A DNA stretch of 32,000 bases from Microcystis aeruginosa NIES-843 (GCF_000010625.1 NC_010296.1:3660001-3692000), one strand, 5' to 3'. Positions 1 through 29,347 are shown, counted from the stretch's first letter. The notes: a model not told the origin generated them from the sequence alone. Numbers and translations: made by a program.

Positions 1-1248
1 TTTAGGGAATGTCGAAAAGAGTTAGCTAAAGAAGGACTCATTGCCGAGTCTGCATTTGATGAGCTAACTAAAATTCTCACTTGTAAGTTTAACGAAGAGA
101 AAAGAGATGCTGAAGGCCTTGCACCCAATCGCTTTACATCTTCCTGGCTTCTTGGCAGTGGACCTCTAGCTGCTTTACAGCAAATGTTTACTGACGCAAA
201 ACAGACTTTTAATGTATTCCCTACGGGAACTCAAATTCAAATTAGAAGCAACGAAACTGTTGAAAAAATTGTTCGTGAATTAGAGCCTTTTGGTCTTTAT
301 GGTTTTAAGACACCACTTGGCTTGGCTGGAGCAGGAGGAGATGTAGTTGGTTCTGTTTATGAGGCCTTTCTTACTGGAACACTCCGAGGGGACTTAGGAC
401 AGTATTTAACCCCAAGACAATTAGTTGAGTTCATGGTTGAGATAGCTGATATAAAAATTGGAGAAAAAGTCCTTGATTTATCATGCGGAAGTGGTGGCTT
501 TCTTATTAGAGCGTTTATTAATGTCCGCAAAAAAATTCGATTTCTTGATTCTAGCCAAGATGAAAAAGATCATTTAGTTAGTAATCTTGTCACGAATAAT
601 CTATGGGGAATTGAGATAAATCCTCGGTTAGCCACTTTATGTCGAATAAATATGATTTTACATGGTGATGGCTATGAACATATTTATACAGGAGATTCAA
701 TTAGAGAAGATGTTTTTGAGAATACAGATGGACGCAGAACTGATTTTTTAAATATTGAGCAAAATAACGCAGCAATGTTTGATGTAATTCTCATTAATCC
801 CCCGTTCAATATACCCTATGAAGATTCTGCTACTTTAAACCGGTATTATCTAGGACGAGGTAAAGCTGCTCAAGGTTCAGACTATTTGGTTCTTGAGAGA
901 GCAATTCGACTATTAAAGCCTGAAACTGGACGTTTGCTAGTTATTTTGCCCCATGGTGTTGCCAGCGGAGTTTCCGAGACTGAAGTTCGCAACTTTGTGA
1001 AATCTCGTACACATATTCATGGTTGTATAAGCTTACCTGTCGGATCATTTAAGCCGTTTGGGGGGTCTAATGCTAGAACCTGTGTTTTGTATCTCAAGAA
1101 GACTACTGGAGACAATAAAAAGCGTTTTTTAGCACAAGCAGAACACGTTGGCTATGACATTACCTCAAAATATTATAGAGAAACTGATCTCAATGATTTA
1201 CCTGTTATCGCGGAAGCCTATCATAGAGTAAAACTAGAATTGCAATGA
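1..1248 (+). CDS. hsdM: Type I restriction-modification N6-adenine DNA methyltransferase (HsdM-like); 5' end lies outside the window
   Basis: Frame 1 is open from base 1 with no stop before the ORF-track Met at 184, so the gene is cut by the window edge. Motif order is gamma-class: SAM-binding DLSCGSGGFL, then catalytic LINPPFN. LGQYLTPRQLVEFMV is the typical HsdM pre-motif. Its stop overlaps the next gene's start (ATGA). Confidence 0.85.
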   Translation, partial: FRECRKELAKEGLIAESAFDELTKILTCKFNEEKRDAEGLAPNRFTSSWLLGSGPLAALQQMFTDAKQTFNVFPTGTQIQIRSNETVEKIVRELEPFGLYGFKTPLGLAGAGGDVVGSVYEAFLTGTLRGDLGQYLTPRQLVEFMVEIADIKIGEKVLDLSCGSGGFLIRAFINVRKKIRFLDSSQDEKDHLVSNLVTNNLWGIEINPRLATLCRINMILHGDGYEHIYTGDSIREDVFENTDGRRTDFLNIEQNNAAMFDVILINPPFNIPYEDSATLNRYYLGRGKAAQGSDYLVLERAIRLLKPETGRLLVILPHGVASGVSETEVRNFVKSRTHIHGCISLPVGSFKPFGGSNARTCVLYLKKTTGDNKKRFLAQAEHVGYDITSKYYRETDLNDLPVIAEAYHRVKLELQ

Positions 1249-1967
1249 CTATCGAGTTAATTAAACCAGACCCTTTAATATTAACAATCACTGAAGAATC
1301 AGCCCGTAGTATCGATACAGTTGATGCTGGTGCAGCTTATACACAATATTTGCATGAGCAAATAGGTGAGTTTGAACAGCAGCCTTTAGGAAACTTTGTA
1401 GATGTTGTATCAAGAAGCGTTAATCCACGCTCTAGTAGATATGCTGGTCAAATATTTGAATATATAGATTTACGAGAAGTAGATGATATTTATGGCTATA
1501 TATTAACTCTTAAACTTAATCAAGGAAATGAGATTGGAAGTACAAAACATCGCTTTCAAAAGAATGACATTCTCTTCGCCAAGATCATGCCCAGCTTGGC
1601 CAACAAAAAGATTGCGCTAGTAACTCAAGATGTAACTAACGCAGTAGCTTCAACTGAATTTATTGTTTTGCGAAAAAAATCACAAGCCGAGATTAATCTT
1701 TATTACCTTTTTCGGGCTTTACGTTCTGATCATTTTACCCGACAAGCGACAGCAAACGTTACTGGTGCAACGGGGCGACAGAGAATTAGCCCGTCTAGAT
1801 TACTAGAATTACAAATAATTGTTCCCCCAGAAGAGATTCAAACACAAATTGGAGATGCTGTCGAACAAGAGTTTACGCTAAGGACATTGGCGGCAGAACA
1901 ATCAAAGAAAGCTGATGACTTAGCTCAGCTTGTACTTGGTAATCTAACTCTTAGAACCGACAGCTAG
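1245..1967 (+). CDS. hsdS: Type I RM specificity subunit (HsdS-like), half-size with a single target-recognition domain
   Basis: 240 aa, against about 400-450 aa for two-TRD HsdS proteins. It has HsdS-type conserved-region motifs (STEFIVLR, TGATGRQRISPSRLLELQIIVPP). It is translationally coupled to the methylase by an ATGA overlap at 1245-1248. Confidence 0.75.
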   Translation: MTIELIKPDPLILTITEESARSIDTVDAGAAYTQYLHEQIGEFEQQPLGNFVDVVSRSVNPRSSRYAGQIFEYIDLREVDDIYGYILTLKLNQGNEIGSTKHRFQKNDILFAKIMPSLANKKIALVTQDVTNAVASTEFIVLRKKSQAEINLYYLFRALRSDHFTRQATANVTGATGRQRISPSRLLELQIIVPPEEIQTQIGDAVEQEFTLRTLAAEQSKKADDLAQLVLGNLTLRTDS

Positions 1968-1978
1968 AAAGCGCGGAA

Positions 1979-2100
1979 GGTAGGTTGGGTTGACGACTGT
2001 TACCCAACACCCCATCCAATAACCAGGCAAAATCATTTATAATTATTTGATAATAGGACATTGGTTGGGTTTCGTGCTAAATTCGTTGAGTATAGGCTAC
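1979..2100. repeat. GGTTGGGTT / AACCCAAC hairpin-type dispersed repeat (MITE-like, degenerate)
   Basis: taggttgggttgacgactgttacccaaca lies at 1981-2009 and ggttgggtttcgtgc...ataggctac at 2063-2100. A related copy, gtaggttgggttgaagcatgaaacccaac, lies near 13125. Confidence 0.4.
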
Positions 2101-2195
2101 ATATCAGGACAAGCAAAAGGGGGAATAGATAATCAGTTTTTAATAAACGGATTTAGGATCATTTTCCTTGGGTACTGACAGGAGGAACAAAACTG

Positions 2196-2516
2196 ATGCA
2201 GATAGAAATTCAAGGAGCCGATGCTATCAAAGTTGCTCAGGATATCGTCGAGATGGAAGGGGTGCAAGGCAGCTACGAAGTTATCTCCGAAGTGCAGAAA
2301 GAGGGAACCCTTGCTACCATCGCCACCATCATCGGCATTATTAGCGGAACAATCGCCATCGCTGAGAAATTGTACCAATTAAAGCGAAAAATTGACTCTC
2401 CTGAAACCCCGAAAATCGGACGAGTGTTAATTGTCAGCCAAAACGGCGATCGTCTGCTGCTCAAAGATGCTACCCTAGAGCAACTACAAAAACTCTTAGA
2501 ACAAGAAAAATCATGA
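2196..2516 (+). CDS. Small hypothetical protein (106 aa) with one central hydrophobic segment, coupled to the CHAT gene
   Basis: AGGAGG sits 8 nt upstream of the ATG. The hydrophobic stretch is LATIATIIGIISGTIAIA. Its TGA overlaps the ATG of the downstream CHAT ORF (tcATGAgg at 2513-2516). I recognise no family. Confidence 0.6.
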   Translation: MQIEIQGADAIKVAQDIVEMEGVQGSYEVISEVQKEGTLATIATIIGIISGTIAIAEKLYQLKRKIDSPETPKIGRVLIVSQNGDRLLLKDATLEQLQKLLEQEKS

Positions 2517-3073
2517 GGATACTGCATATTGATCTTCAGGAGAGGGGTAGCAATAGCGTTGAGTTCCGATTTTTCTGGGATAACCCCAACCAGACTCGTA
2601 CCTACACAAGATGCTTGAGTGAAATAGACCACCTAAGTAAAAAGGCCGACACCGATTACTATACCCGTTTACCAGAAGACCACGCCAGAACAGGACAAGG
2701 TTTGTACCGATGGTTAGATGGTACGGAGCGCATTCTACAGAACGAATTAGAGAGCCACCGGGGAGAGAAAATAGTTCTGGCTATCAGCACCAGCAAAAGA
2801 TTAGTCCATCTACCCTGGGAACTCCTACACGATGGTCAGGGTTTTTTGGTAGAGAAAAGACCTGCCATTATTCCCGTGCGGTGGTTTTCCAATAATAGAC
2901 CGAATCAGATTGTCAGTCCGCCGCCAAACCGTCCCCTCAACTTGCTCTTTATGGCTACCTCTCCGCTAGGCGTTGAACCCGTCTTAGATTACGAAGCAGA
3001 AGAGGGGCAAATTTTAGGAGCCACCCAGCGCAATCCGGTGAACTTGAGAGTAGAAGAAAGTGGTTGTTTAAAT

Positions 3074-4291
3074 AGACCTCTTGCATAATTTTTTTATGGT
3101 ATAATATAAGGTTTTGCTTTTTTCTCAATTCTTAGATTGAAGTGGAAAAAAGAATAAAATGTGATCTTAGGTCAGGAAATCATCTATAATTTTGCTATGT
3201 TTATTAGCAAAATTATGGATTATCAAAACTTATCAGATGAACAATTCAAACGCCGTTTCGGTGTGTATAAACAAACCTATAGAAAGATGGTAGAATCAGT
3301 AAAAAGTGTTGAAGCCGACTCTAATTCACCATCTAAAAGGGGACCGAAACCTAAACTATCTATAGAAGAACAAGTTTTAGTAACGTTAGAATATTGGCGA
3401 GAATATAGAACATATTTTCACATTGGTACAAGCTGGGAACTATCAGAATCAACTATATGTCGGATTGTAAATAAGACGGAAAAAATGCTTTTACAATCGG
3501 GAAACTTCCGTTTAAAAGGAAAAAAAGCTTTACTCAATCAAGCAGAGATACCGGTCATAACGGTAATGGATGTAACGGAAACTCCCATTGAACGCCCCCA
3601 AAAGAAACAGAAAGATTTTTTTTCGGGTAAAAGAGGTTATCATACTTTAAAATCCCAATTAGTAGCTGATCAAAATACAAAGGAAATTATCTGTGTCTTT
3701 TGTGGGAAAGGTAGAGGTCATGATTTTAGTTTATTTAAAAAAAGTCGAGTTCGTTTTCATCCTTTAACTACCAGCATAGAAGACAGTGGTTATCAGGGAA
3801 TAGCTGCATACCATAGTAATAGTTATACACCGAAAAAGAAATCGAAAAATAGAAAATTAACAGAGTTAGAAAAAGAGTATAACAAGGCTTTAGCCAAAGA
3901 AAGGATTATCATTGAACCTATAAATAGGAAACTCAAAATCTTTAAAATCTTATCCTGTAAATATCGGAATCGTCGTCGAAGATATAGTTTAAGAGTTAAC
4001 TTGTTGGCGGCTATTTATAACTGTGAGTTAGGGATAGGTATAGCAGCTTCTTAAAAGTTGCCTAAAGATTAATCAAGTCAAGGAGAATTTATTCTCAATT
4101 TTTATAATTGAGATAGTTTGTGCCGCTTAAATAAAGAGGTTTTGATAACCAAATTAAAGCAGCTCTAAAGAGTTTTGAGTTAAAAGTTAAACTTCAAGTT
4201 TTCATTCAGGACAAATGTACTGATTAACTAATTTTTTGGGGAAAATTAGTTAACCCATCATTATAACATATAATTAATTTGCAAGAGTTCT
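3074..4291 (+). mobile_element. IS5-family insertion sequence (PIF/Harbinger-like DDE transposase), 1218 bp
   Basis: The terminal inverted repeats are AGACCTCTTGCA (3074-3085) and the reverse complement of 4280-4291, AGAACTCTTGCA. A 3-bp direct duplication AAT lies at 3071-3073 and 4292-4294; bases 3070/4291 and 3074/4295 differ, so the duplication is exactly 3 bp. One transposase ORF lies inside. Confidence 0.85.
3215..4054 (+). CDS. IS5-family DDE transposase
   Basis: N-terminal HTH region (LSIEEQVLVTLEYWREYRTYFHIGTSWELSESTICR). Candidate DDE residues sit in VMDVTE, EDSGYQG and IIEPINRKLK. The ATG at 3215 (MDYQNL) is preferred over the GTG at 3161 used by the ORF track. Confidence 0.8.
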   Translation: MDYQNLSDEQFKRRFGVYKQTYRKMVESVKSVEADSNSPSKRGPKPKLSIEEQVLVTLEYWREYRTYFHIGTSWELSESTICRIVNKTEKMLLQSGNFRLKGKKALLNQAEIPVITVMDVTETPIERPQKKQKDFFSGKRGYHTLKSQLVADQNTKEIICVFCGKGRGHDFSLFKKSRVRFHPLTTSIEDSGYQGIAAYHSNSYTPKKKSKNRKLTELEKEYNKALAKERIIIEPINRKLKIFKILSCKYRNRRRRYSLRVNLLAAIYNCELGIGIAAS

Positions 4292-7020
4292 AATGAGTTA
4301 GGCTATGTAGTTCGGGAATATGACCAAGGCTACTTTGATGTCTTTCACTTAACAGGTCATGCAACTCATCAGGACGGAAAACCCTGCTTTCTCACCGAGG
4401 ATGAGTATGGCAACCAGGTTGATAGCGACACCAATGCCATTTATGATGCGATCAATCGTTCTTCTTTACCGCCTTTAATTTTCCTCTCTGGTTGCCGTAC
4501 AGGTTATGCTCCTGACAGCGCAGTTCCCTCCATGGCGGAAGAATTTTTGCACTTGGGGGCAAAAGCTGTTTTGGGTTGGGGAGAAAGGGTTCTAGATACG
4601 GATGCAGCAGTGGCAGCGAAGGAATTGTACGGACATTTATCCCAAGGGGAAACGGTAATTGAGGCCCTATCTGCTACCTATAGAGCCTTAATTGACCAGC
4701 AAGCAAGGGATTGGCATAAACTGCGCTTATATGTAGGAAACACTCTACCTCAAGCCCTAGTAACTCCCTTAAGGACACCGCAACGCACACAACTGCCAAA
4801 ACCGACAATTACCAGAGAATTTAGAGATGATGAAAATCGGCTTAGGGTGGTCAAAAGGGAAGAGTTTGTCGGTCGTCGTCGCCAGTTACAGAATTGTTTG
4901 CGAACGCTGAAAACGGATTGGGAAAAGGTTGGGGTACTAATTCATGGTATGGGAGGATGGGGAAAAAGTAGTATCGCCTCTCGACTGTGGGAGAGATTGC
5001 CTGAATCGGAAAAGCTTCTCTGGTGGCGACAAATTGATGAAGTTTATTTGATAAGAAAGTTAAAAGATAAACTCATCAATCCTAAAACTAGAGAACTTAT
5101 TGCTGATTTAGAAAACAATCAAATTGAACTTAAATCTCGATTATCTTACCTATTCATTCGGTTAGCTGAATTGGGAGAAAAACCGTTTCTTCTGATTCTT
5201 GATGACTTTGAATGGAATCTTGAACCCCGTGACGGTCGCTACATTCTTAAGGCTCCAGTCGCCCCGATTTTAGCAGCATTAGTCACGGCAATCCAAGAAA
5301 CGGGAACTGACCATCGGATTCTGATTACTTGTCGCTACGAGTTCGATTCTGATTTATTAGAGGCTTTTTTCTTGCAGGGATTAGAACCATTTAGAAAAGC
5401 CGAACTGACTAAAAAACTCGCTCGTCTAGCCAATTTTACCCCGGATCAACTTCCTGAACCTCTCAGGGAAAGGGCGTTGAATTTAGCCGATGGAAATCCT
5501 CGATTACTAGAATTTCTCAATAATGATGTTTTAGATAGAGAAGATGCAGAAGCTCAATTAGCTGAACTAGAAAATAGTCCCGATTTGTGGAAAGATAAAA
5601 TTATTTGGCAGGAACTGTACCAGCTTATCGATCAGCCATTACAGCAGGTTCTTAGTCATTGTTTAATCTATGAGATACCCGTCCCGATGGTAGCTTTAAA
5701 AGCTGTTTGTAGCTCCATTTCTAATTACCAAGGACAATTAAAACGGGGGTTAGATTTGGGGCTGATTGAGATTAGTTCTGAAGTTCAAGAAGAGGATCGA
5801 GTTTATCGTGTCTCTCGAATTTTACCTAATATTATTTCCTCTGTCCAACATCCGGTCGCAACAGAGGTTTATTCATTATCTAGGAAAGCTCATGATAAAT
5901 TATATGAATTATGGGGAAATAAAGAGAACAAAAACGAGGAAAGATGGGCAGAGATTTTTCGTCTAGCTTTTGCAGAGATAGAAAACCCTGAAAGGTTTAG
6001 GGAACAATTCGATAAGATGATCTCGGTACAATATCACAAAGAGGCTGATCGCGCCTACGAAAAAGAACTGAGAAAATCAAGGGAATATCTCATAAAAAAC
6101 CAAGGGCAAATCTATCAAAAACTAGAGAAGTACCTAGAGCAAAAGGATTGGAAAAAAGCCGACTACGAAACCGCTTTCATTATGTATCAGTGGATGGTTA
6201 TAGAAAATTTTGATAAGATATATGATCTTTTTAAAGAAGTATCGCTAGAGGTAATTAATGAGATTGACCGTCTCTGGATGCACTACAGCGAAAGGAAATT
6301 TGGCATTAAAGGACAGGCCAAAATTTACCGTGACCTTGGGGGGAAAGAAGAATATAATCGGGAAGTATGGGGTAGTTTTGGCGATTACATAGGTTGGAAA
6401 CAAGGAGAACGATGGTTTAATTTGGGCAATATGGAAGTAGCATATCGTACTCCAGAAACCCATTATAATCACTTCCCCGTACTAATGTACTGCCGAGGAG
6501 ATTTGCGTTATTGGGACATTTGGGGTGAGGTTTACTGGGGTTTTTATGGGAGGCTGGCTTATCCTGGGATGAATCCTAGGGGTATTGGATCTCTTCTCTC
6601 GCGTCAAGACTTAAAGGACTGTAGCATATAGGGTTACAAGATTTTGTGAACAATTATTAACGAGTAATTTTCCACGAAGCCATGCGGGTTCTGGGTTTTC
6701 GATACCTGTCACCGAGGGGTCAGCCACTCGCCCGATGTTTTTGTAGTATGGTTCCTACTAGAAAGTTATGGGTGAGAAAATCTTTGTGTTCTTTGTGCCT
6801 TTGTGGTTCTTTCTTGCGCTTTTTGGTAATCTTCACTGCAAATCATCCCATGTAGAATTTCTGGCAATTTATCGATTAAATTTCTGGCTTTTTGTTTAAT
6901 GTTTTTTATTTCCATAATGGTTTCCAAAATGACTCCTGACAGTTTACATTATCAACTATTCATTATTAATTAAAAGGGCGATCGCAAAATTACGCCTTCT
7001 TAAAAAAGAGATGAAACACC

Positions 7021-23606: not shown

Positions 23607-24800
23607 ATGAACTCGCTTGCGCCACACCTAAAAGCCAAAGCCCTCAAGCCTAATAGTCGTCGTCCTGCCAAAGAATTGTGTAGCGAGTGCGGACTTTGTG
23701 ACACTTATTATATTCACTACGTTAAAGAAGCTTGTGCTTTTCTCAATCAACAAATCGCCGATTTAGAAGCAGAAGCACACGGCAAAAGTCGCGACTTAAA
23801 TCAGGAAAATGATCTCTATTTTGGTGTTCATCAAGAGATGATGGCTGCCAAGAAAAAACAAGCTATTCCCGGGGCGCAATGGACAGGAATCGTCAGTACA
23901 ATTGCCTGTGAAATGCTCGATCGTGGTTTAGTAGAAGGGGTGGTTTGTGTGCAGAATACCGCCGAGGATCGCTTTCAACCGCAACCGATTCTCGCCCGTA
24001 CCACCGAAGAAATTCTCGCCGCTAAAGTTAATAAACCGACTCTTTCTCCCAATTTATCAGTCCTAGAAGAAATTGAAAAATCGGGCATGAAACGGTTATT
24101 AGTTATCGGAGTTGGTTGTCAAATTCAAGCCCTAAGAGCAGTAGAAAAAAAATTAGGCTTGGAAAAATTATATGTCTTAGGAACTCCCTGCGTCGATAAT
24201 GTCACCCGCTCAGGACTGCAAAAGTTTCTAGAAACTACCAGTCGTTCCCCAGAAACCGTGGTTCATTACGAATTTATGCAGGATTTTCGGGTACACTTTA
24301 AACACGAAGACGGCTCGATCGAAATGGTTCCCTTTTTTGGCTTAAAGACTAATAAATTAAAGGATGTTTTTGCTCCTTCCTGTATGACTTGTTTTGATTA
24401 CGTTAACTCCCTTGCCGATTTAGTTGTGGGCTATATGGGCGCACCTTTTGGCTGGCAATGGATTGTCGTTCGTAATGATACGGGTAAGGAAATGTTAGAG
24501 TTAGTTAAAGACCAATTAGATACCCAAGATGTCATGTCTAGTGGTGATAGAAAACAGGCGGTACAAAATAGCATTCCTGCCTATGATAAAGGTGTAACCT
24601 TGCCGATGTGGGCGGCAAAAATGATGGGAGTAGTAATTGAAAAAATCGGGCCTAAAGGTTTAGAATATGCTCGCTTTTCTATCGATTCTCACTTTACCCG
24701 TAATTACCTTTATGTTAAACGTAATTATCCTGAAAAATTAGCGGCTCATGTTCCTGAATATGCTAAAAAGATTGTGGAACAGTATAAATTGCCCGATTAA
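23607..24800 (+). CDS. bciB: FrhB-family Fe-S flavoprotein, probably the ferredoxin-dependent 8-vinyl reductase BciB / HCAR-like enzyme
   Basis: An N-terminal Cys cluster (CSECGLCDTYYIHYVKEACAF) is followed by FrhB/FdhB-like domains (VIGVGCQIQALR, GTPCVDN). Choosing BciB over other FrhB paralogs is an inference from cyanobacterial gene content. Confidence 0.6.
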   Translation: MNSLAPHLKAKALKPNSRRPAKELCSECGLCDTYYIHYVKEACAFLNQQIADLEAEAHGKSRDLNQENDLYFGVHQEMMAAKKKQAIPGAQWTGIVSTIACEMLDRGLVEGVVCVQNTAEDRFQPQPILARTTEEILAAKVNKPTLSPNLSVLEEIEKSGMKRLLVIGVGCQIQALRAVEKKLGLEKLYVLGTPCVDNVTRSGLQKFLETTSRSPETVVHYEFMQDFRVHFKHEDGSIEMVPFFGLKTNKLKDVFAPSCMTCFDYVNSLADLVVGYMGAPFGWQWIVVRNDTGKEMLELVKDQLDTQDVMSSGDRKQAVQNSIPAYDKGVTLPMWAAKMMGVVIEKIGPKGLEYARFSIDSHFTRNYLYVKRNYPEKLAAHVPEYAKKIVEQYKLPD

Positions 24801-24820
24801 TTAGGGTATGCTGAAAAAGT

Positions 24821-24888
24821 AGGGGCGCAACATTCGGATAGGAAATCTACGGTTTCAACCATAGGTTATCCCCCGAATGTTCACCCCT
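24821..24888. repeat. Long imperfect hairpin element (AGGGGCGCAACATTCGG...CCGAATGTTCACCCCT)
   Basis: The arms lie at 24821-24837 and 24873-24888 with two mismatches. It sits 21 nt after the bciB stop and may act as its terminator. Confidence 0.6.
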
Positions 24889-25007
24889 TCTTCGACAATC
24901 TCTTATCAGTTATCAGTTATCAGTTATCAGTTATCAGTTATCAGTTATCAGCTATCAGTTATCAGTGATTAATTCAATCATAGTCGATGATAGGTGATGC
25001 GTGAGGA

Positions 25008-25108
25008 CTAAATCTGGATGTTGTCAAAATTTCTCTTGACAAAAGCCTCTTGACATGATACTATATTCATAATGGAAAATCTGTGCGCCTACAAACCCTA
25101 TTTTCAAG
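25008..25108 (+). promoter_or_regulatory. Repeat core 1: sigma70-type promoter plus operator palindrome plus conserved leader (upstream of hicBA)
   Basis: The -35 TTGACA is at 25036-25041, followed by a 17-nt spacer and the -10 TACTAT at 25059-25064. The palindrome TTGTCAA-N8-TTGACAA spans 25021-25042. Confidence 0.7.
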
Positions 25109-25166
25109 TCTCAATAATCGCCAATAAAAGCTTAGATAGCGATAATTTTTTTAGGGATTGAGAACC

Positions 25167-25379
25167 ATGAACCATCAAAGAGAGTTTTATGTTGTCATTG
25201 AACGAGATAAGGATGGATATTATGTTGGGGAAGTTCCTCAACTTCGGGGTTGTTACAGTCAAGGGGAAACGATTGATGAATTGATGAAGAATATCAGGGA
25301 AGTGATTGAACTTTGCTTGGAAGATGACAATCCTGAAGATGTGTCGGAGTTTGTTGGAATTGAAAAGCTGTCTATCTGA
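25167..25379 (+). CDS. hicB: HicB-family antitoxin
   Basis: REFYVVIERDKDGYYVGEVPQLRGCYSQGETIDELMKNIREVIELCLE is the typical HicB/UPF0150 N-terminal domain. The ATG at 25167 is preferred over the TTG at 25158. Confidence 0.85.
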   Translation: MNHQREFYVVIERDKDGYYVGEVPQLRGCYSQGETIDELMKNIREVIELCLEDDNPEDVSEFVGIEKLSI

Positions 25380-25603
25380 TGCCAAAATTACCGATATTAA
25401 CCGGTGATGAAGTTATCAAAGCTTTAACTAAAATCGGGTTTCAATCTATCCGACAAAAAGGAAGTCATCTGCGCTTAAAACATGAAGATGGAAGAGTTGT
25501 CACCGTACCGGTTCATCGGGAGAAAACTGTCGGGAAAGGATTACTCTTAAAAATTTTGCGCGATGCTGAACTGACACAAGAAGAATTTATTCGTCTGCTG
25601 TAA
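25379..25603 (+). CDS. hicA: HicA-family mRNA-interferase toxin
   Basis: 74 aa. LTGDEVIKALTKIGFQSIRQKGSHLRLKHEDGRVVTVPVH is the HicA (YcfA-like) signature. Its start overlaps the hicB stop (TGATG). Confidence 0.88.
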   Translation: MPKLPILTGDEVIKALTKIGFQSIRQKGSHLRLKHEDGRVVTVPVHREKTVGKGLLLKILRDAELTQEEFIRLL

Positions 25604-25703
25604 TTCCCATCTTGATTGAAGCTTAATGTCCCCTTGCTAAATATAGTACAAAAAATCTGGCTTTGTCAGATCAGAAAAAGATGCAATCCAATCTTTCTGC
25701 TAC

Positions 25704-25805
25704 GTTTTTCTGGATTTTGTCAAAATTTCTCTTGACAAAGGCGACTTGACATGATACTATATTCATAATGGAAAATCCGTGCGCTTGCAGACCCTAGTTT
25801 TCAAG
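25704..25805 (+). promoter_or_regulatory. Repeat core 2
   Basis: The -35 is at 25732-25737, followed by a 17-nt spacer and the -10 TACTAT at 25755-25760. The core ends 17 bp before the stop codon of the oppositely oriented relE-like gene. Confidence 0.7.
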
Positions 25806-25822
25806 AATTTTCAAGGTCTAGT

Positions 25823-26077
25823 TTATTGCCCATAATGGGTTTTAGTACGATGAATATAGATTAACTTCTGTTCATCATTAATGGTGTAAAGTATTCTATC
25901 TTGATAACTTAAGCGAATTGAATAGAAACCCGTTAAATCTCCTACTAATTTTTTACCACTATAGGGAGAAATACTCAGGGTATCTTGGATAATTGACTTC
26001 AGTTTTTTCTTAAGTTTAGGGGTTAGCTTATCAACATCTTTTTTTGCTTCTTTGGTAAATCTGACTTCATAAACCAT
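25823..26077 (-). CDS. RelE/ParE-superfamily toxin
   Basis: 84 aa. YEVRFTKEAKKDVDKL...GDLTGFYSIRLSYQDRILYTINDEQKLIYIHRTKTHY matches the RelE/StbE pattern. Confidence 0.85.
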   Translation of the reverse strand: MVYEVRFTKEAKKDVDKLTPKLKKKLKSIIQDTLSISPYSGKKLVGDLTGFYSIRLSYQDRILYTINDEQKLIYIHRTKTHYGQ

Positions 26078-26340
26078 TAATCAATGTCTCCCAAGACTTC
26101 CTCGAAAGAATAGGTTTCATTTTCATTAATTTGCTGTAGAGATAGTTGTAAGCTTTCTCTTAAATCGGGAATAGAGAGTAATTCGATGGTTTCTTGTAAA
26201 CTTTCATAGTTTTTTTGAGAAATCAAAATTACAGAATCCTCCTGATTCTCAATGGCATAAATTTTGTTATCTTCCGTAACCGATTTAACGAGACTTGGTA
26301 AATCGGTTTGAGCATCGGCGATTTTAATTTTTTTGATCAT
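26077..26340 (-). CDS. Phd/YefM-type antitoxin
   Basis: 87 aa with the N-terminal DAQTDLPSLVKSV...VILISQKNYESLQETIELLS pattern. It overlaps the toxin start by 1 nt. Confidence 0.75.
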   Translation of the reverse strand: MIKKIKIADAQTDLPSLVKSVTEDNKIYAIENQEDSVILISQKNYESLQETIELLSIPDLRESLQLSLQQINENETYSFEEVLGDID

Positions 26341-26512
26341 AATTAATCCTTTTTTTGATGATGAAATAATAAAAATTATTGTAGGGATTTAACAATCTCA
26401 CCTAATCACACTCCAGACAGCATCCTCCTATAATTATCCATCATTGTAGTCATCAGTGATTAATTCAATCATAGTCGATGATAGGTGATGCGTTACTGGA
26501 CTAGGTAATAGG

Positions 26513-26542
26513 TGTAGGGGTAATTCATGAATTACCCCTACA
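26513..26542. repeat. Perfect palindromic element TGTAGGGGTAATTCATGAATTACCCCTACA
   Basis: 30 nt and perfectly self-complementary, of the GTAGGGG...CCCCTAC type also seen at 24820-24888. Confidence 0.9.
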
Positions 26543-26547
26543 ATAAC

Positions 26548-26650
26548 GTTTTTGTGGATGTTGTTAAAATTTCTCTTGACAAAGGCGACTTGACATGATA
26601 CTATATACATAATGCAAAATCCGTGCGCCTACAGACCCTATTTTCCAAAG
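26548..26650 (+). promoter_or_regulatory. Repeat core 3
   Basis: The -35 is at 26576-26581, followed by a 17-nt spacer and the -10 TACTAT at 26599-26604. The left palindrome arm has one change (TTGTTAA). Confidence 0.7.
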
Positions 26651-26671
26651 CATTCAAACTCTATCTTAATT

Positions 26672-26815
26672 CTACTTGCCAGAGTTGCGACAACATAGTT
26701 TTATATTCTCCATAATCGTTTGAGTATGGGGATGATTTTCCCCTAATCCTTCCCTGAAAATATTAATCGCTTCTAGATGGTTCCGCTTCTGTGTACCTGT
26801 CTTGGGAATGGTACA
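26672..26815 (-). pseudogene. Remnant of the C-terminus of a TPR-repeat protein
   Basis: The minus strand reads ...NHLEAINIFREGLGENHPHTQTIMENIKLCCRNSGK*, with a frameshifted ...RYTEAEP upstream. This is the TPR_12-type consensus, and there is no start codon. Confidence 0.45.
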
Positions 26816-26821
26816 ATAGTC

Positions 26822-27235
26822 CTAAATTATTGAGAGATACCAATTTTCATAACTAAGATTGGGAATATTTTGAAAATGCTTAATGTTAGCTGTAATCAGA
26901 GTATAATCACAATAAATAGCAGTCGCAGCAATAAACAAATCAATCGGGGTAATTAGTTGTCCTTTTATTCTAAGATTAACGTATATTTGAGTAGCTATAT
27001 CACTAATTTCACGATCATAACCAATTACTTCACTGACTTCTACAAGACGTTCAAATTGTTGTTGTTGATTTCGTGCATCTTTATACAATAAACCACTTTT
27101 AATCTCGTAATAGGTAAAGATTGAAAACGATATATAAGTATAGTGTTGTCGATAGATGCGGAATTGTTCAATTACTGCGGGATTGCCTCGTAAAAAATAA
27201 GAGAGGATATTGGTATCAAGTAATGCTTGTTTCAT
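26822..27235 (-). CDS. vapC: PIN-domain toxin VapC
   Basis: 137 aa. The N-terminus is LLDTNILSY (first acidic residue), and the PIN fold pattern continues through IDLFIAATAIYCDYTLITANIKHF. Confidence 0.85.
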   Translation of the reverse strand: MKQALLDTNILSYFLRGNPAVIEQFRIYRQHYTYISFSIFTYYEIKSGLLYKDARNQQQQFERLVEVSEVIGYDREISDIATQIYVNLRIKGQLITPIDLFIAATAIYCDYTLITANIKHFQNIPNLSYENWYLSII

Positions 27236-27468
27236 AAGTCATTTATCCGTCTTAAATCGAGTTGACGATTAGCTTCTGCTTCTTCGACAATCTCTTGCAT
27301 AGTATTTTCTATATCTGCTGCCATACCAGCAAATTCCATAAAGTCAACGTCTGGATGTTTTGTTTTTATAGATTGGACAAAATGCAGGATTTCCGGCAGC
27401 AGAGAAATGGGAGTTGTTTCAATTTCTTTAATAAGTTGTTCTTTGAGTGTCATAGCTTTATCAGTCAT
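27232..27468 (-). CDS. VapB-like antitoxin
   Basis: 78 aa, with a 4-nt overlap onto vapC. The start could instead be the second Met at 27453, because the first codons fall inside the heptamer tract. Confidence 0.65.
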   Translation of the reverse strand: MTDKAMTLKEQLIKEIETTPISLLPEILHFVQSIKTKHPDVDFMEFAGMAADIENTMQEIVEEAEANRQLDLRRINDL

Positions 27469-27533
27469 CAGTTATCAGTATCAGTTATCAGTGGTTAATT
27501 CAATCATAGTCAATGATAGGTGATGCGTTACGA

Positions 27534-27637
27534 CTAAATCTGGATGTTGTCAAAATTTCTCTTGACAAAGGCGACTTGACAGGATACTGTATTCATAATG
27601 GGAAATCCGTGCGCCTACGAACCCTCTTTTCCAACGG
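27534..27637 (+). promoter_or_regulatory. Repeat core 4 (weakened -10)
   Basis: The -35 is at 27562-27567, followed by a 17-nt spacer and a -10 of TACTGT at 27585-27590. Confidence 0.6.
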
Positions 27638-27840
27638 TCTTAACTATGATTGATGTGATTATTTGATTGACTATGATTCGTTCATTCAATCAATCAATCT
27701 TCATCTCTAATCCACTCTTAACTAGCTCCCTAATCACAGTCCATCAGATGATTACATCAACCACAGTCGATGGTGGTGGGTTAGGACGGATTGTTAGCTT
27801 GAAGTTAAAGCGGAAATTTCTGCCGTCTAACTACATTTTA

Positions 27841-27943
27841 CTAAATCTGGATGTTGTCAAAATTTCTCTTGACAAAGGCGACTTGACATGATATTATATT
27901 CATAATGGGAAATCCGTGCGCCTACAGACCCTCTTTTCCAACG
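27841..27943 (+). promoter_or_regulatory. Repeat core 5
   Basis: The -35 is at 27869-27874, followed by a 17-nt spacer and a -10 of TATTAT at 27892-27897. Confidence 0.7.
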
Positions 27944-28116
27944 CTCTTAACTATGATTGGTTCATTCAATCCATCTTCATCTCTAATCCACTCTTAACTA
28001 GCTCCCTAATCACAGTCCATCAGATGATTACATCAACCACAGTCGATGGTGGTGCGTGAGGACGGATTGTTAGCTTGAAGTTAAAGCGGAAATTTTGGCC
28101 GTCTAACTAGGTTTTA

Positions 28117-28219
28117 CTAAATCTGGATGTTGTCAAAATTTCTCTTGACAAAGGCGACTTGACATGATACTATATTTATAATGGAAAATCCGTGCGCCTA
28201 CAGACCCTCTTTTCCAATG
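28117..28219 (+). promoter_or_regulatory. Repeat core 6
   Basis: The -35 is at 28145-28150, followed by a 17-nt spacer and the -10 TACTAT at 28168-28173. Confidence 0.7.
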
Positions 28220-28286
28220 GTCTTAACTATGATTGATGTGATTATGTGATTGACTAGGATTGGTTCATTCAATCAATCTTCATCTC

Positions 28287-29233
28287 GGTGGTGATTCTGT
28301 AGTAGTGATGGCGGCTTAATCCTTTGCCAGGTGTGCATTGTAGTCATGGATAAAATACCAAACAGCCCCAACGTGATTCTCCATTTTTTTAGAGAAAGAT
28401 AGACTCTCTCTCACCAACCGAGAAATCCTTTGTCGAAAGGTATTATTTAATCTTTCAATAGGATTAGTTTGACCAGTTTCTTTCCCGACTGGTCGATGAC
28501 GTTTACTGGGAATTACTGTCTTATATGACTCCCAAAAGTCTGTGTAAGCAACTGCACATTGTCGGTAAACACCTGGTAAACTAGCCCAAAGTTTTTTGGC
28601 TGATTGACGACTCCTATCTCCGCGCATAGCAACCAATAATTTCCCTTGTATTTCTATCAATTAACCGCCAAATATAGACCTTTATCGTCTTAGAAAAAAC
28701 AAAAGACCACATTTCATCACATTCTCTAACCAATTTACCTTTTGGTTTGTCCGAAACCTTTATTTGACGGGGGACAGCCGCCAGTTTATTGTTGACATAA
28801 TTTTGTAACCATGACCAACTTACCCCTGTTACTCTAGCAATTCCTCGTCAGGAAATTCGTTCGAGCAAGAGTTTATCAATTAATTGTTTGGTTTCGTCAG
28901 AGACGGTTTTATTAGTGGGATTGATCACCAACTGACGACCACATTCTTTACCTTGACGTTTGGGTTTTCCATTATGAATAGAACCATTCTTGATCGTATG
29001 GTGAGAACCACAATTAGGACAGGGGAACGGAGGTGAAGGGGGTACTTTGTTCGGTGCTAGACTGATATTTCAGTAAGCCAGACAGGAGCCAGAAAAAGAT
29101 ATTTATCAGAAAAGTCATGATCAAGCTAGAGGTTTAAAGACTGATTCGAGCCAATTATTTTTATTAATAAATATTTTACACAATTCATACCAGGTAAGCA
29201 AGAGAGCTACGCCACTACTACCGAATCATTACC
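28287..29233 (-). mobile_element. IS1-family insertion sequence, decayed copy
   Basis: The terminal inverted repeats are GGTGGTGATTCTGTAGTAGTGATGGCG (28287 onward) and the reverse complement of 29207-29233, GGTAATGATTCGGTAGTAGTGGCG. The flanking 9-mers (cttcatctc and tcttttcgc) differ, so no target duplication is present. Confidence 0.75.
28316..29030 (-). pseudogene. IS1-family transposase (InsA zinc finger plus InsB core) with an in-frame stop and a frameshift
   Basis: The N-terminus is CPNCGSHHTIKNGSIHNGKPKRQGKECGRQ. An in-frame TGA lies near 28870 (ERIS*RGIARVTGVS). The frame breaks near 28650 (..REIIGCYARR versus ..AMRGDRSRQSAKKLW). The C-terminal part, YTDFWESY...TNPIERLNNTFRQRISRLVRESLSFSKK, is IS1-type. 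Confidence 0.75.
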
Positions 29234-29347
29234 TCTTTTCGCATCTTTATCGGGGGTGACGGGGGTATCTTCTGCGGTGATAATCCAAATGGTTTCTTCT
29301 GGCATAGCGTTCTCGTTTTTCGGCAATGGTTCTCCTTTATTATTCTA

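Follow-up and report, generated by a model that had tools for sequence, protein, structure and literature searches.

Six co-oriented repeats among toxin-antitoxin modules

In a 32,000-nucleotide stretch of the Microcystis aeruginosa NIES-843 chromosome (GCF_000010625.1, NC_010296.1:3660001-3692000; hereafter the window, with positions counted from its first letter), a short repeat that we call the core occurs six times downstream of bciB and parts a series of small toxin-antitoxin (TA) modules from one another. All six cores lie on the plus strand, at 25013-25108, 25709-25804, 26553-26648, 27539-27634, 27846-27941, and 28122-28217 (cores 1 to 6), and a repeat search combined with MAFFT alignment gave start-to-start spacings of 696, 844, 986, 307, and 276 nt. 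Two non-overlapping sub-patterns of the core, searched with up to 3 mismatches, matched the same six places only in the 32-kb window, against chance expectations of 0.00 and 0.04 matches. The six-core feature is real, is not a product of chance, and is apparently restricted to Microcystis.

A promoter scan of the window found sites of the form TTGACA-17-TACTAT or TTGACA-17-TATTAT, with TG before the -10 element and 10 to 11 of 12 consensus matches, in five of the six cores. These promoter-like sites are located at 25036-25064 in core 1 (TTGACA-17-TACTAT with TG), 25732-25760 in core 2, 26576-26604 in core 3, 27869-27897 in core 5 (TTGACA-17-TATTAT, 11 of 12), and 28145-28173 in core 6. Core 4 has TTGACA at 27562-27567 and TACTGT at the -10 position (27585-27590). 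The preliminary description of this locus had reported six co-oriented repeats, whose positions the repeat search, the alignment, and the sub-pattern scans bear out, and a near-consensus sigma70 promoter in each of them, which, judged from sequence alone, holds for five cores (10 to 11 of 12 matches), core 4 having TACTGT at the -10 position.

Cores 1 and 2 enclose a plus-strand hicBA pair, consisting of the hicB antitoxin gene (25167-25379; PF15919, HicB_lk_antitox, 4.5e-10), whose ATG lies 59 nt past the end of core 1, and the hicA toxin gene (25379-25603; PF07927, 6.8e-21). hicB is also a called gene in the related loci L037 and L038. The next interval holds a minus-strand pair, namely, a ParE/RelE-superfamily toxin gene (25823-26077; PF15781, PF06769, and PF05016, ParE-like/YoeB/ParE), with 18 nt between its stop codon and the end of core 2, and a Phd/YefM antitoxin gene (26077-26340; PF02604, PhdYeFM, 1.8e-08). 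Between cores 3 and 4, also on the minus strand, are the frameshifted 3' remnant of an NB-ARC/TPR gene, comprising the last TPR repeat and the C terminus (26664-26843, by tblastn), a vapC gene for a PIN-domain toxin of 137 amino acids (aa) (26822-27235; PF01850, 4.6e-12), and, upstream of the PIN gene, a 78-aa open reading frame (ORF) for a vapB-like antitoxin without a Pfam match (27232-27468), the probable start of which is the second Met, at 27453. In tblastn searches the TPR remnant showed 71% identity to a 62-aa remnant in locus L015 and also matched the C termini of TPR proteins. The remaining cores are followed by plus-strand units that contain no gene: unit 1 (27635-27845), with an imperfect 31- to 36-nt inverted repeat (about 27643-27678 versus 27732-27767); unit 2 (27942-28121), 95% identical to unit 1 and in register with it; and the start of a third (28218-28286), interrupted by a minus-strand IS1-family element (28287-29233) with 21-nt inverted ends and a degraded transposase (DDE_Tnp_IS1 fragment, PF03400). 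Pfam and tblastn thereby confirm the inter-core content as originally reported, i.e., hicBA, phd/relE, a TPR remnant plus vapBC, gene-less units, and a unit cut by IS1.

Distribution and limits of the core

When one genome per species was scanned with an exact pattern, 28 stretches matched: 27 from Microcystis and one, a chance match that showed no homology past the pattern, from Coleofasciculus. A metagenome scan with a pattern taken from the transcribed part only added 68 stretches, the flanking genes of which are of the Microcystis type, and no cores were found in phage, plasmid, and viral collections. By a fuzzy search of all loci, we counted 236 cores in 106 related loci, in arrays of up to eight copies. 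Within each of the 106 loci all cores are co-oriented, with no oppositely oriented neighbors. The cores are apparently confined to Microcystis, and a randomly scattered MITE (miniature inverted-repeat transposable element), a possibility raised in the preliminary description, does not fit the result of the cross-genome search, in which the core occupies few sites, is co-oriented, and has a TA module in every gene-bearing inter-core segment.

The arrays occupy three main sites and a few others. Each main site lies past a conserved co-oriented gene, which is bciB, a gene for an ArsP-type permease (the core beginning 20 nt past its stop codon), or a DUF1611/DgcN-like gene; a fourth site lies past a gene of 692 aa (locus L078). 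Where the far end of an array can be seen, a convergent gene for an NB-ARC plus TPR_10/12 protein of 560-1016 aa usually stands there, with 21-300 nt between its stop codon and the last core, and the core forms the conserved 3' flank of this NB-ARC/TPR gene family. PADLOC assigned the NB-ARC/TPR proteins to a generic TPR model only. Some sites are "empty" and minimal, a single core lying between the conserved gene and the convergent TPR gene (L018, L024), and some islands have collapsed to the permease gene, one core, a 75-nt TPR remnant, and an arginase gene only (L012, L017). Outside arrays, Microcystis sp. BLCC-F210 carries two solitary, diverged hicB(A)-plus-core copies (L002:7189-7658 and L007:470-700), one of which adjoins a 100-aa ORF. 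These comparisons show that the window locus belongs to a small number of chromosomal hot spots in Microcystis that share one layout.

The part common to all copies, delimited first with 54 and then with 236 copies, runs in promoter coordinates from A/T-rich sequence at about -45 (AAATTTCTC) to about +45 (…CCCTMTTTTC). The left edge was found again, independently, at the permease site. On the right, homology ends fairly sharply at TTTTC, past which the sequences fall into a few unrelated classes: the hicBA leader, the relE 3' end, the TPR gene 3' end, and the tail of the gene-less units. As seen in the alignment of the six window cores, the repeat as a whole is not palindromic overall, and imperfect inverted repeats lie on both sides of it, in a box upstream and in the tail downstream.

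Cassette types and their reshuffling

We clustered the 133 inter-core segments of the 106 loci. The gene-bearing segments fall into five types, every one of them a type II TA module, and the rest are gene-less. Four types point against the core: phd/relE (n = 28), a TPR remnant with PIN137 and vapB (n = 8), a TPR remnant with PIN141 and a 79-aa antitoxin (n = 6), and ParE84 with an antitoxin of 69-74 aa (n = 6). The fifth, hicBA (n = 22), is in sense with it. This orientation is fixed, since hicBA is always sense and the other four types are always antisense. A double cassette occurs once, and the gene-less units (about 60) form tandem runs of up to 4-5 copies. PIN141 and ParE84 are cassettes of related loci and stand beside the HicA/HicB, ParE-RelE/Phd-YefM, and PIN/VapB-like modules of the window; none of the three VapB-like antitoxins matches Pfam or NCBIfam significantly, and that of the window is 55% identical over 40 aa to the 69-aa antitoxin paired with ParE84. 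Decay has affected many cassettes, as in those that have lost relE or carry a truncated hicB. The pool of cassettes is small and closed, being made up of five TA types and gene-less units.

Array maps of the 106 loci place every cassette type at two or three sites, in varying order. With e standing for a gene-less unit, the bciB-site array of the window reads hicBA, relE, PIN137, e, e. Another array at the same site reads relE, hicBA, e, e, TPR gene, and a further one reads e, e, PIN141, PIN137, e, e, e, NB-ARC/TPR gene; others have PIN141 first or relE first. Identity of one cassette across sites, flanking cores included, is 92-98%, which is not below the values between strains at the same site, and the flank classes on the two sides of the core are freely combined. 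As proposed in the preliminary description, the behavior of the locus is that of a cassette array: it is not invariant at the bciB site, where the content, number, and order of cassettes differ among strains, the same cassettes recur at other sites, and in some strains the whole island has collapsed to one core at the permease site. These structural and population-level claims, i.e., the array layout and the cassette reshuffling, are well supported.

The core as a putative promoter

At least 10 of the 12 consensus positions are matched in 147 of 155 unique cores overall and in 102 of the 107 unique cores found by the pattern in the transcribed part alone. Within the latter set, the -35 TTGACA is kept in 105 cores, and a second TTGACA, located within the spacer 14 nt downstream of the first, is kept in all 107. 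This second hexamer is invariant in all 155 unique cores and is more conserved than the -10 element; the entropy at -35 is 0.09 bit versus 0.2-0.4 bit in the spacer, the -10 element, and the transcribed part. The two TTGACA hexamers, exemplified by 25036-25057 in the first core, are the most conserved feature of the core, and the second, which is not explained by promoter geometry, may be a protein-binding site.

The hicB ATG always lies about 55-60 nt past the core, and hicBA has no other upstream region; in the solitary diverged hicBA copy of L007, core homology is present from about -45 on. On the basis of these two observations, the core is most likely the native promoter and leader of hicBA, which would since have been propagated. 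Rightward promoter activity of the core is likely.

How the cassettes may be shuffled

On balance, we lean toward the view that the core is a propagated promoter plus leader that provides portable homology for the shuffling of cassettes and transcribes rightward. In this model, the core would constitute a complete sigma70-type promoter together with the first ~45 nt of its transcript, its parts being the A/T-rich -45 region, TTGACA, the 17-nt spacer with the second invariant TTGACA, and TGn-TAYTAT. Recombination between the directly repeated cores could delete, duplicate, excise, re-insert, or gene-convert core-plus-cassette units; units might leave as a circle and re-enter a different core in Campbell fashion, be copied by gene conversion, or be exchanged through a double crossover after DNA uptake, and each of these routes would preserve cassette orientation while order and site are shuffled. 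Each core would fire rightward, reading hicBA in sense, and elsewhere its transcripts would run antisense or convergent into the 3' ends of toxin genes, TPR remnants, and the NB-ARC/TPR gene. Such antisense transcripts may damp or insulate potentially harmful toxin or TPR genes, although an antisense regulatory or insulating role of the core is speculative.

Polymorphisms within the core are informative about the exchange itself. Those in the left part (the promoter spacer) track the upstream neighbor, those in the right part (+25 to +40) track the downstream neighbor, and those in the middle track neither. No sharp crossover point was seen within the core; instead, the flank association changes gradually, which fits breakpoints spread over a short homology and not a fixed crossover point. 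No integrase was found among the 19 window ORFs scanned with Pfam or among the Pfam families of the called genes in the syntenic locus L029, and no recombinase of the tyrosine or serine type was found among the gene clusters recurring within 10 kb of the 106 arrays. We favor exchange between cores by homologous recombination or gene conversion, which would not require a dedicated new "system." In that respect we depart from the preliminary description, which is supported in part: its cassette array, distinct from an integron and from an NsiR1-type array, holds.

Several points weigh against this interpretation. The promoter call is made from sequence, and promoter-like sequence is no proof of activity. 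At the -10 position, 23 of the 107 unique cores read CATTAT, and no terminator-like plus-strand site for the proposed transcripts was found in 24700-28400. Four of the five cassette types are antisense to the core promoter, which is therefore not there for expressing those four. Conservation between copies may be due in part to recent spread or gene conversion and not to selection. On the side of recombination, a recombinase may be encoded elsewhere in the genome, and the test for association with flanks is confounded by strain relatedness and so provides weak evidence against a precise crossover point. Finally, homologous recombination does not account for the first association of five unrelated TA modules with flanking cores, at a right-hand junction that is fairly sharp.

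Alternative explanations

The core and the next ~200-250 nt might instead be an RNA gene (for a hairpin RNA in the gene-less units and an anti-TPR or anti-toxin RNA in other places) in a tandem array of small RNAs (sRNAs) or antisense RNAs, with the TA modules as inserted passengers. The tandem runs of gene-less units, each with a promoter-like core, would fit such an array, and 55 of 194 unique cores are directly followed by a TPR 3' end in antisense, even where the gene is gone. Further, the gene-less unit can form a long imperfect hairpin that exceeds shuffled sequences (z = -2.8 on the plus strand and -4.0 on the minus strand). However, of the two strands it is the non-transcribed one that gives the stronger hairpin, which is what a simple inverted repeat in DNA would produce, and the hairpin reflects such a repeat formed by the tail and the box that follows. 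No Rfam family reached the gathering score in the whole window, and matches at E <= 5 over the locus were noise only, with none inside cores. RNAalifold applied to 133 unique +1 to +45 regions found neither a consensus fold nor covariation on either strand, and the folding z-scores of this region (-0.1 and -0.5) are close to those of shuffled sequences, results on which a structured sRNA in +1 to +45 was rejected. With no terminator-like site, and with sequences past +45 that are unrelated among unit classes, we consider an RNA array unlikely. Separately, a leaderless small ORF (MENPCAYRPSFP..., with its ATG about 8 nt past the -10 element) was rejected as a conserved peptide: as read off the alignment with no statistic, its substitutions are mostly non-synonymous, and in core 2 its frame has a stop at codon 10.

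It also seems improbable to us that the core is the promoter-active recombination site of an undescribed cassette system. Here, a trans-encoded recombinase or an RNA made by the core would move core-plus-TA units among a few docking sites at the 3' ends of NLR-like NB-ARC/TPR genes, and the outward promoters would give antisense control of the toxins and the NLR-like gene. If true, this would be a counterpart of the integron that is dedicated to TA and defense modules, is based on promoters, and has no integrase.

The case is slightly poorer for a purely site-specific system, in which a distant recombinase would recognize the core and move core-plus-cassette circles as an integron integrase does at attC/attI. 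A 7-N8-7 palindrome within the core, TTGTCAA-N8-TTGACAA, which overlaps the -35 element, could be the recognized site, and the strict cassette orientation, the movement among at least three sites, the existence of "empty" minimal sites (L018, L024), and the fairly sharp right-hand junction of homology all agree with this possibility. However, about half of the cores have an imperfect palindrome (TTGTTAA), and at the permease site its left arm is missing from the boundary cores. The gradual change of polymorphism-flank association over the core and the failure to find a recombinase, among either the window ORFs scanned or the genes that recur within 10 kb of the arrays, argue in the same direction, as does the lack of attC-like sites: the R''/R' pair pattern RYYYAAC-N35-130-GTTRRRY matched 0 times in 24801-28400, versus 0.9 expected in shuffles. 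A site-specific system is thus rather doubtful.

We hold it equally doubtful that the core is a selfish or neutral repeat, MITE-like or derived from a duplicated intergenic fragment, the promoter likeness of which is incidental and the arrays of which are scars left as a plastic genome underwent repeated duplication and deletion. Repeats abound in Microcystis genomes, and another direct repeat, of 152 bp, fences a TA module in strain PCC 7806 (PMC7935541). The inverted repeats flanking the core (box and tail), the several small insertion modules and heptamer runs around cores, and the many decayed cassettes (relE deleted, hicB truncated) also fit such scars. However, the cores occupy few sites, are strictly co-oriented, and are not dispersed. 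In addition, the two TTGACA hexamers are near-invariant while the spacer and +20 to +35 vary, and the hicBA cassette has no other promoter region. A functional minus strand, on which the core would be a shared 3' untranslated region or terminator of the NB-ARC/TPR genes and co-oriented TA operons, copied with those 3' ends, is very improbable: the core does begin 17-21 nt past TPR gene stops and 18 nt past relE, and a 10-bp G-U-rich hairpin can form on that strand, but the hairpin is no stabler than shuffled sequences (z = -0.5) and is followed by no U run, and a terminator role accounts neither for the invariance of both TTGACA hexamers nor for the position of the core in sense with hicBA.

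Comparison with known systems

Chromosomal integron arrays, such as Vibrio superintegrons, resemble the Microcystis arrays in that co-oriented repeats part unrelated small gene modules, TA modules are among the cargo, the number and order of cassettes vary among strains, and the orientation relative to the repeat is fixed. Unlike in integrons, no intI, attI, or Pc was found at the Microcystis arrays, and the repeat is promoter-like and not an imperfect palindrome of the attC type. Moreover, the cargo is closed, and a genome has several sites, usually capped by NB-ARC/TPR genes. There is also no common Pc serving promoterless, co-oriented cassettes; instead, each unit has its own promoter-like site, and most cassettes are antisense to it.

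The sRNA arrays of the NsiR1 type in Nostoc/Anabaena are likewise tandem direct repeats with a promoter-like site each (a predicted one in Microcystis), and the gene-less units have a period of ~220-310 nt. The NsiR1-type promoter is heterocyst-specific, in contrast to the sigma70 consensus type of the promoter-like site in Microcystis, and the Microcystis cores differ further in having no Rfam match, terminator, or conserved RNA structure and in having TA genes interleaved among them. In agreement with the preliminary description, the locus fits neither an integron (no intI or attC) nor an NsiR1-type array (no Rfam match, terminator, or conserved fold). As for MITEs, the core shares with them its short length, lack of coding capacity, multiple copies, and flanking imperfect inverted repeats, but it is found at few sites and co-oriented per locus, no target-site duplications were seen, and no partner transposase was found.

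Promoter-carrying intergenic repeats exist, e.g., the Correia elements of Neisseria, and Matus-Garcia et al. reportedly described "putative mobile promoters" in 2012. Such elements, which would be a functional analogue, are short promoter-bearing repeats that lie beside unrelated genes in one genome and act as recombination substrates, as is proposed for the core, but those known are dispersed in both orientations and usually upstream of the genes that they drive. The Microcystis core, in contrast, is found in few arrays, strictly co-oriented, mostly convergent with its neighbors, and in sense only with hicBA.

In the literature searched, neither keywords nor stretches of the core sequence led to an account of this repeat, and the abstract and section 2.1 of a type I TA study of PCC 7806SL (PMC12390103) show no link to it. 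The nearest published observation found is that of the 152-bp "border repeats" of PCC 7806, which fence a ParE/ParD-like module beside the MaOC1 orthocaspase gene (Klemencic et al. 2021, PMC7935541). They occur in the same genus, and there, too, a type II TA module of strain-variable presence lies between two direct repeats downstream of a large gene of the defense or cell-death type (PMC7935541). However, the border repeats differ from the core in sequence, having an inverted repeat (GGGCGAAGCATTCGGA), and they enclose a single module and not an array, with no promoter noted and no multi-site shuffling described (PMC7935541). What appears to be new here is the combination of promoter-like repeats with the shuffled TA cassettes that they part, forming an integron-like array without a visible integrase.

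Microcystis is known for extreme genome plasticity and very many TA and defense genes, and the means by which these are reshuffled are poorly understood. In the arrays analyzed here, one short repeat marks the docking sites, and five TA modules change order and site beside NLR-like genes, with no recombinase in view. Should the cores be active as promoters, each toxin gene and each NB-ARC/TPR gene of these islands would lie opposite a strong promoter directed toward it, which would amount to an unreported layer of antisense control or insulation for harmful genes. As the system is small and closed, it is experimentally tractable.

Small modules and other features around the arrays

Directly after bciB and outside the array, the window contains an imperfect inverted repeat (GGGGCGCAACATTCGG ... 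CCGAATGTTCACCCC, 24821-24884) that resembles the 16-bp inverted repeat GGGCGAAGCATTCGGA of the PCC 7806 border repeats (PMC7935541). It is followed by an 18-nt stretch (CTTCTTCGACAATCTCTT, 24886-24905) that is identical to part of the vapB-like gene (27287-27304), is joined directly to a heptamer run, and is probably a relic of a deleted TA cassette. In loci L003 and L016, the ParE84/69-aa module sits between bciB and the first core.

A plus-strand 49-nt box precedes cores 1, 3, and 4, at 24957-25005 (copy 1, the upstream module of core 1; 94% to the reference), 26448-26496 (copy 2), and 27483-27531 (copy 3), and (ATCAGTT)n heptamer runs precede the box, at 24903-24966 for copy 1 and 27458-27499 for copy 3. 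Upstream of cores 5 and 6 the box has diverged, and a 55-nt insertion is present (GGATTGTTAGCTTGAAGTTAAAGCGGAAATTTCTGCCGTCTAAC..., 27785-27840, carried by gene-less unit 1, and 28061-28116). A 28-nt perfect palindrome (GTAGGGGTAATTCATGAATTACCCCTAC, 26514-26541) is inserted between box copy 2 and core 3. The same palindrome is found between box and core in one spacer class of many related loci, and the 55-nt module is inserted in another spacer class; both look like small mobile insertions. The frame of the DUF1611/DgcN-like gene enters an (ATCAGTT)n run in L011, L024, L096, and L105, and the C terminus of its product (…LLSVISYQLSVISD) therefore varies among strains with the repeat number.

At the other end of the window array, the sequence past the IS1 element does not continue the interrupted gene-less unit, which suggests that an IS1-associated deletion took the rest of the array and the NB-ARC/TPR gene. 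The 5' end only of a minus-strand ORF (29234-29306, ATG at about 29306) is left before argZ. Across the related loci, recurrent neighbors of the arrays include housekeeping genes and NB-ARC/TPR, ParA-like, HEPN, Uma2, and ABC1 kinase genes. Defense genes and mobile elements are abundant at the window's left end (184-6631), which contains a type I restriction-modification methylase and S subunit, a CHAT-domain fragment, an insertion sequence whose transposase is of the DDE_Tnp_4 family, and an AAA_16/NB-ARC-like protein of 699 aa that has a GUN4 domain at its C terminus.

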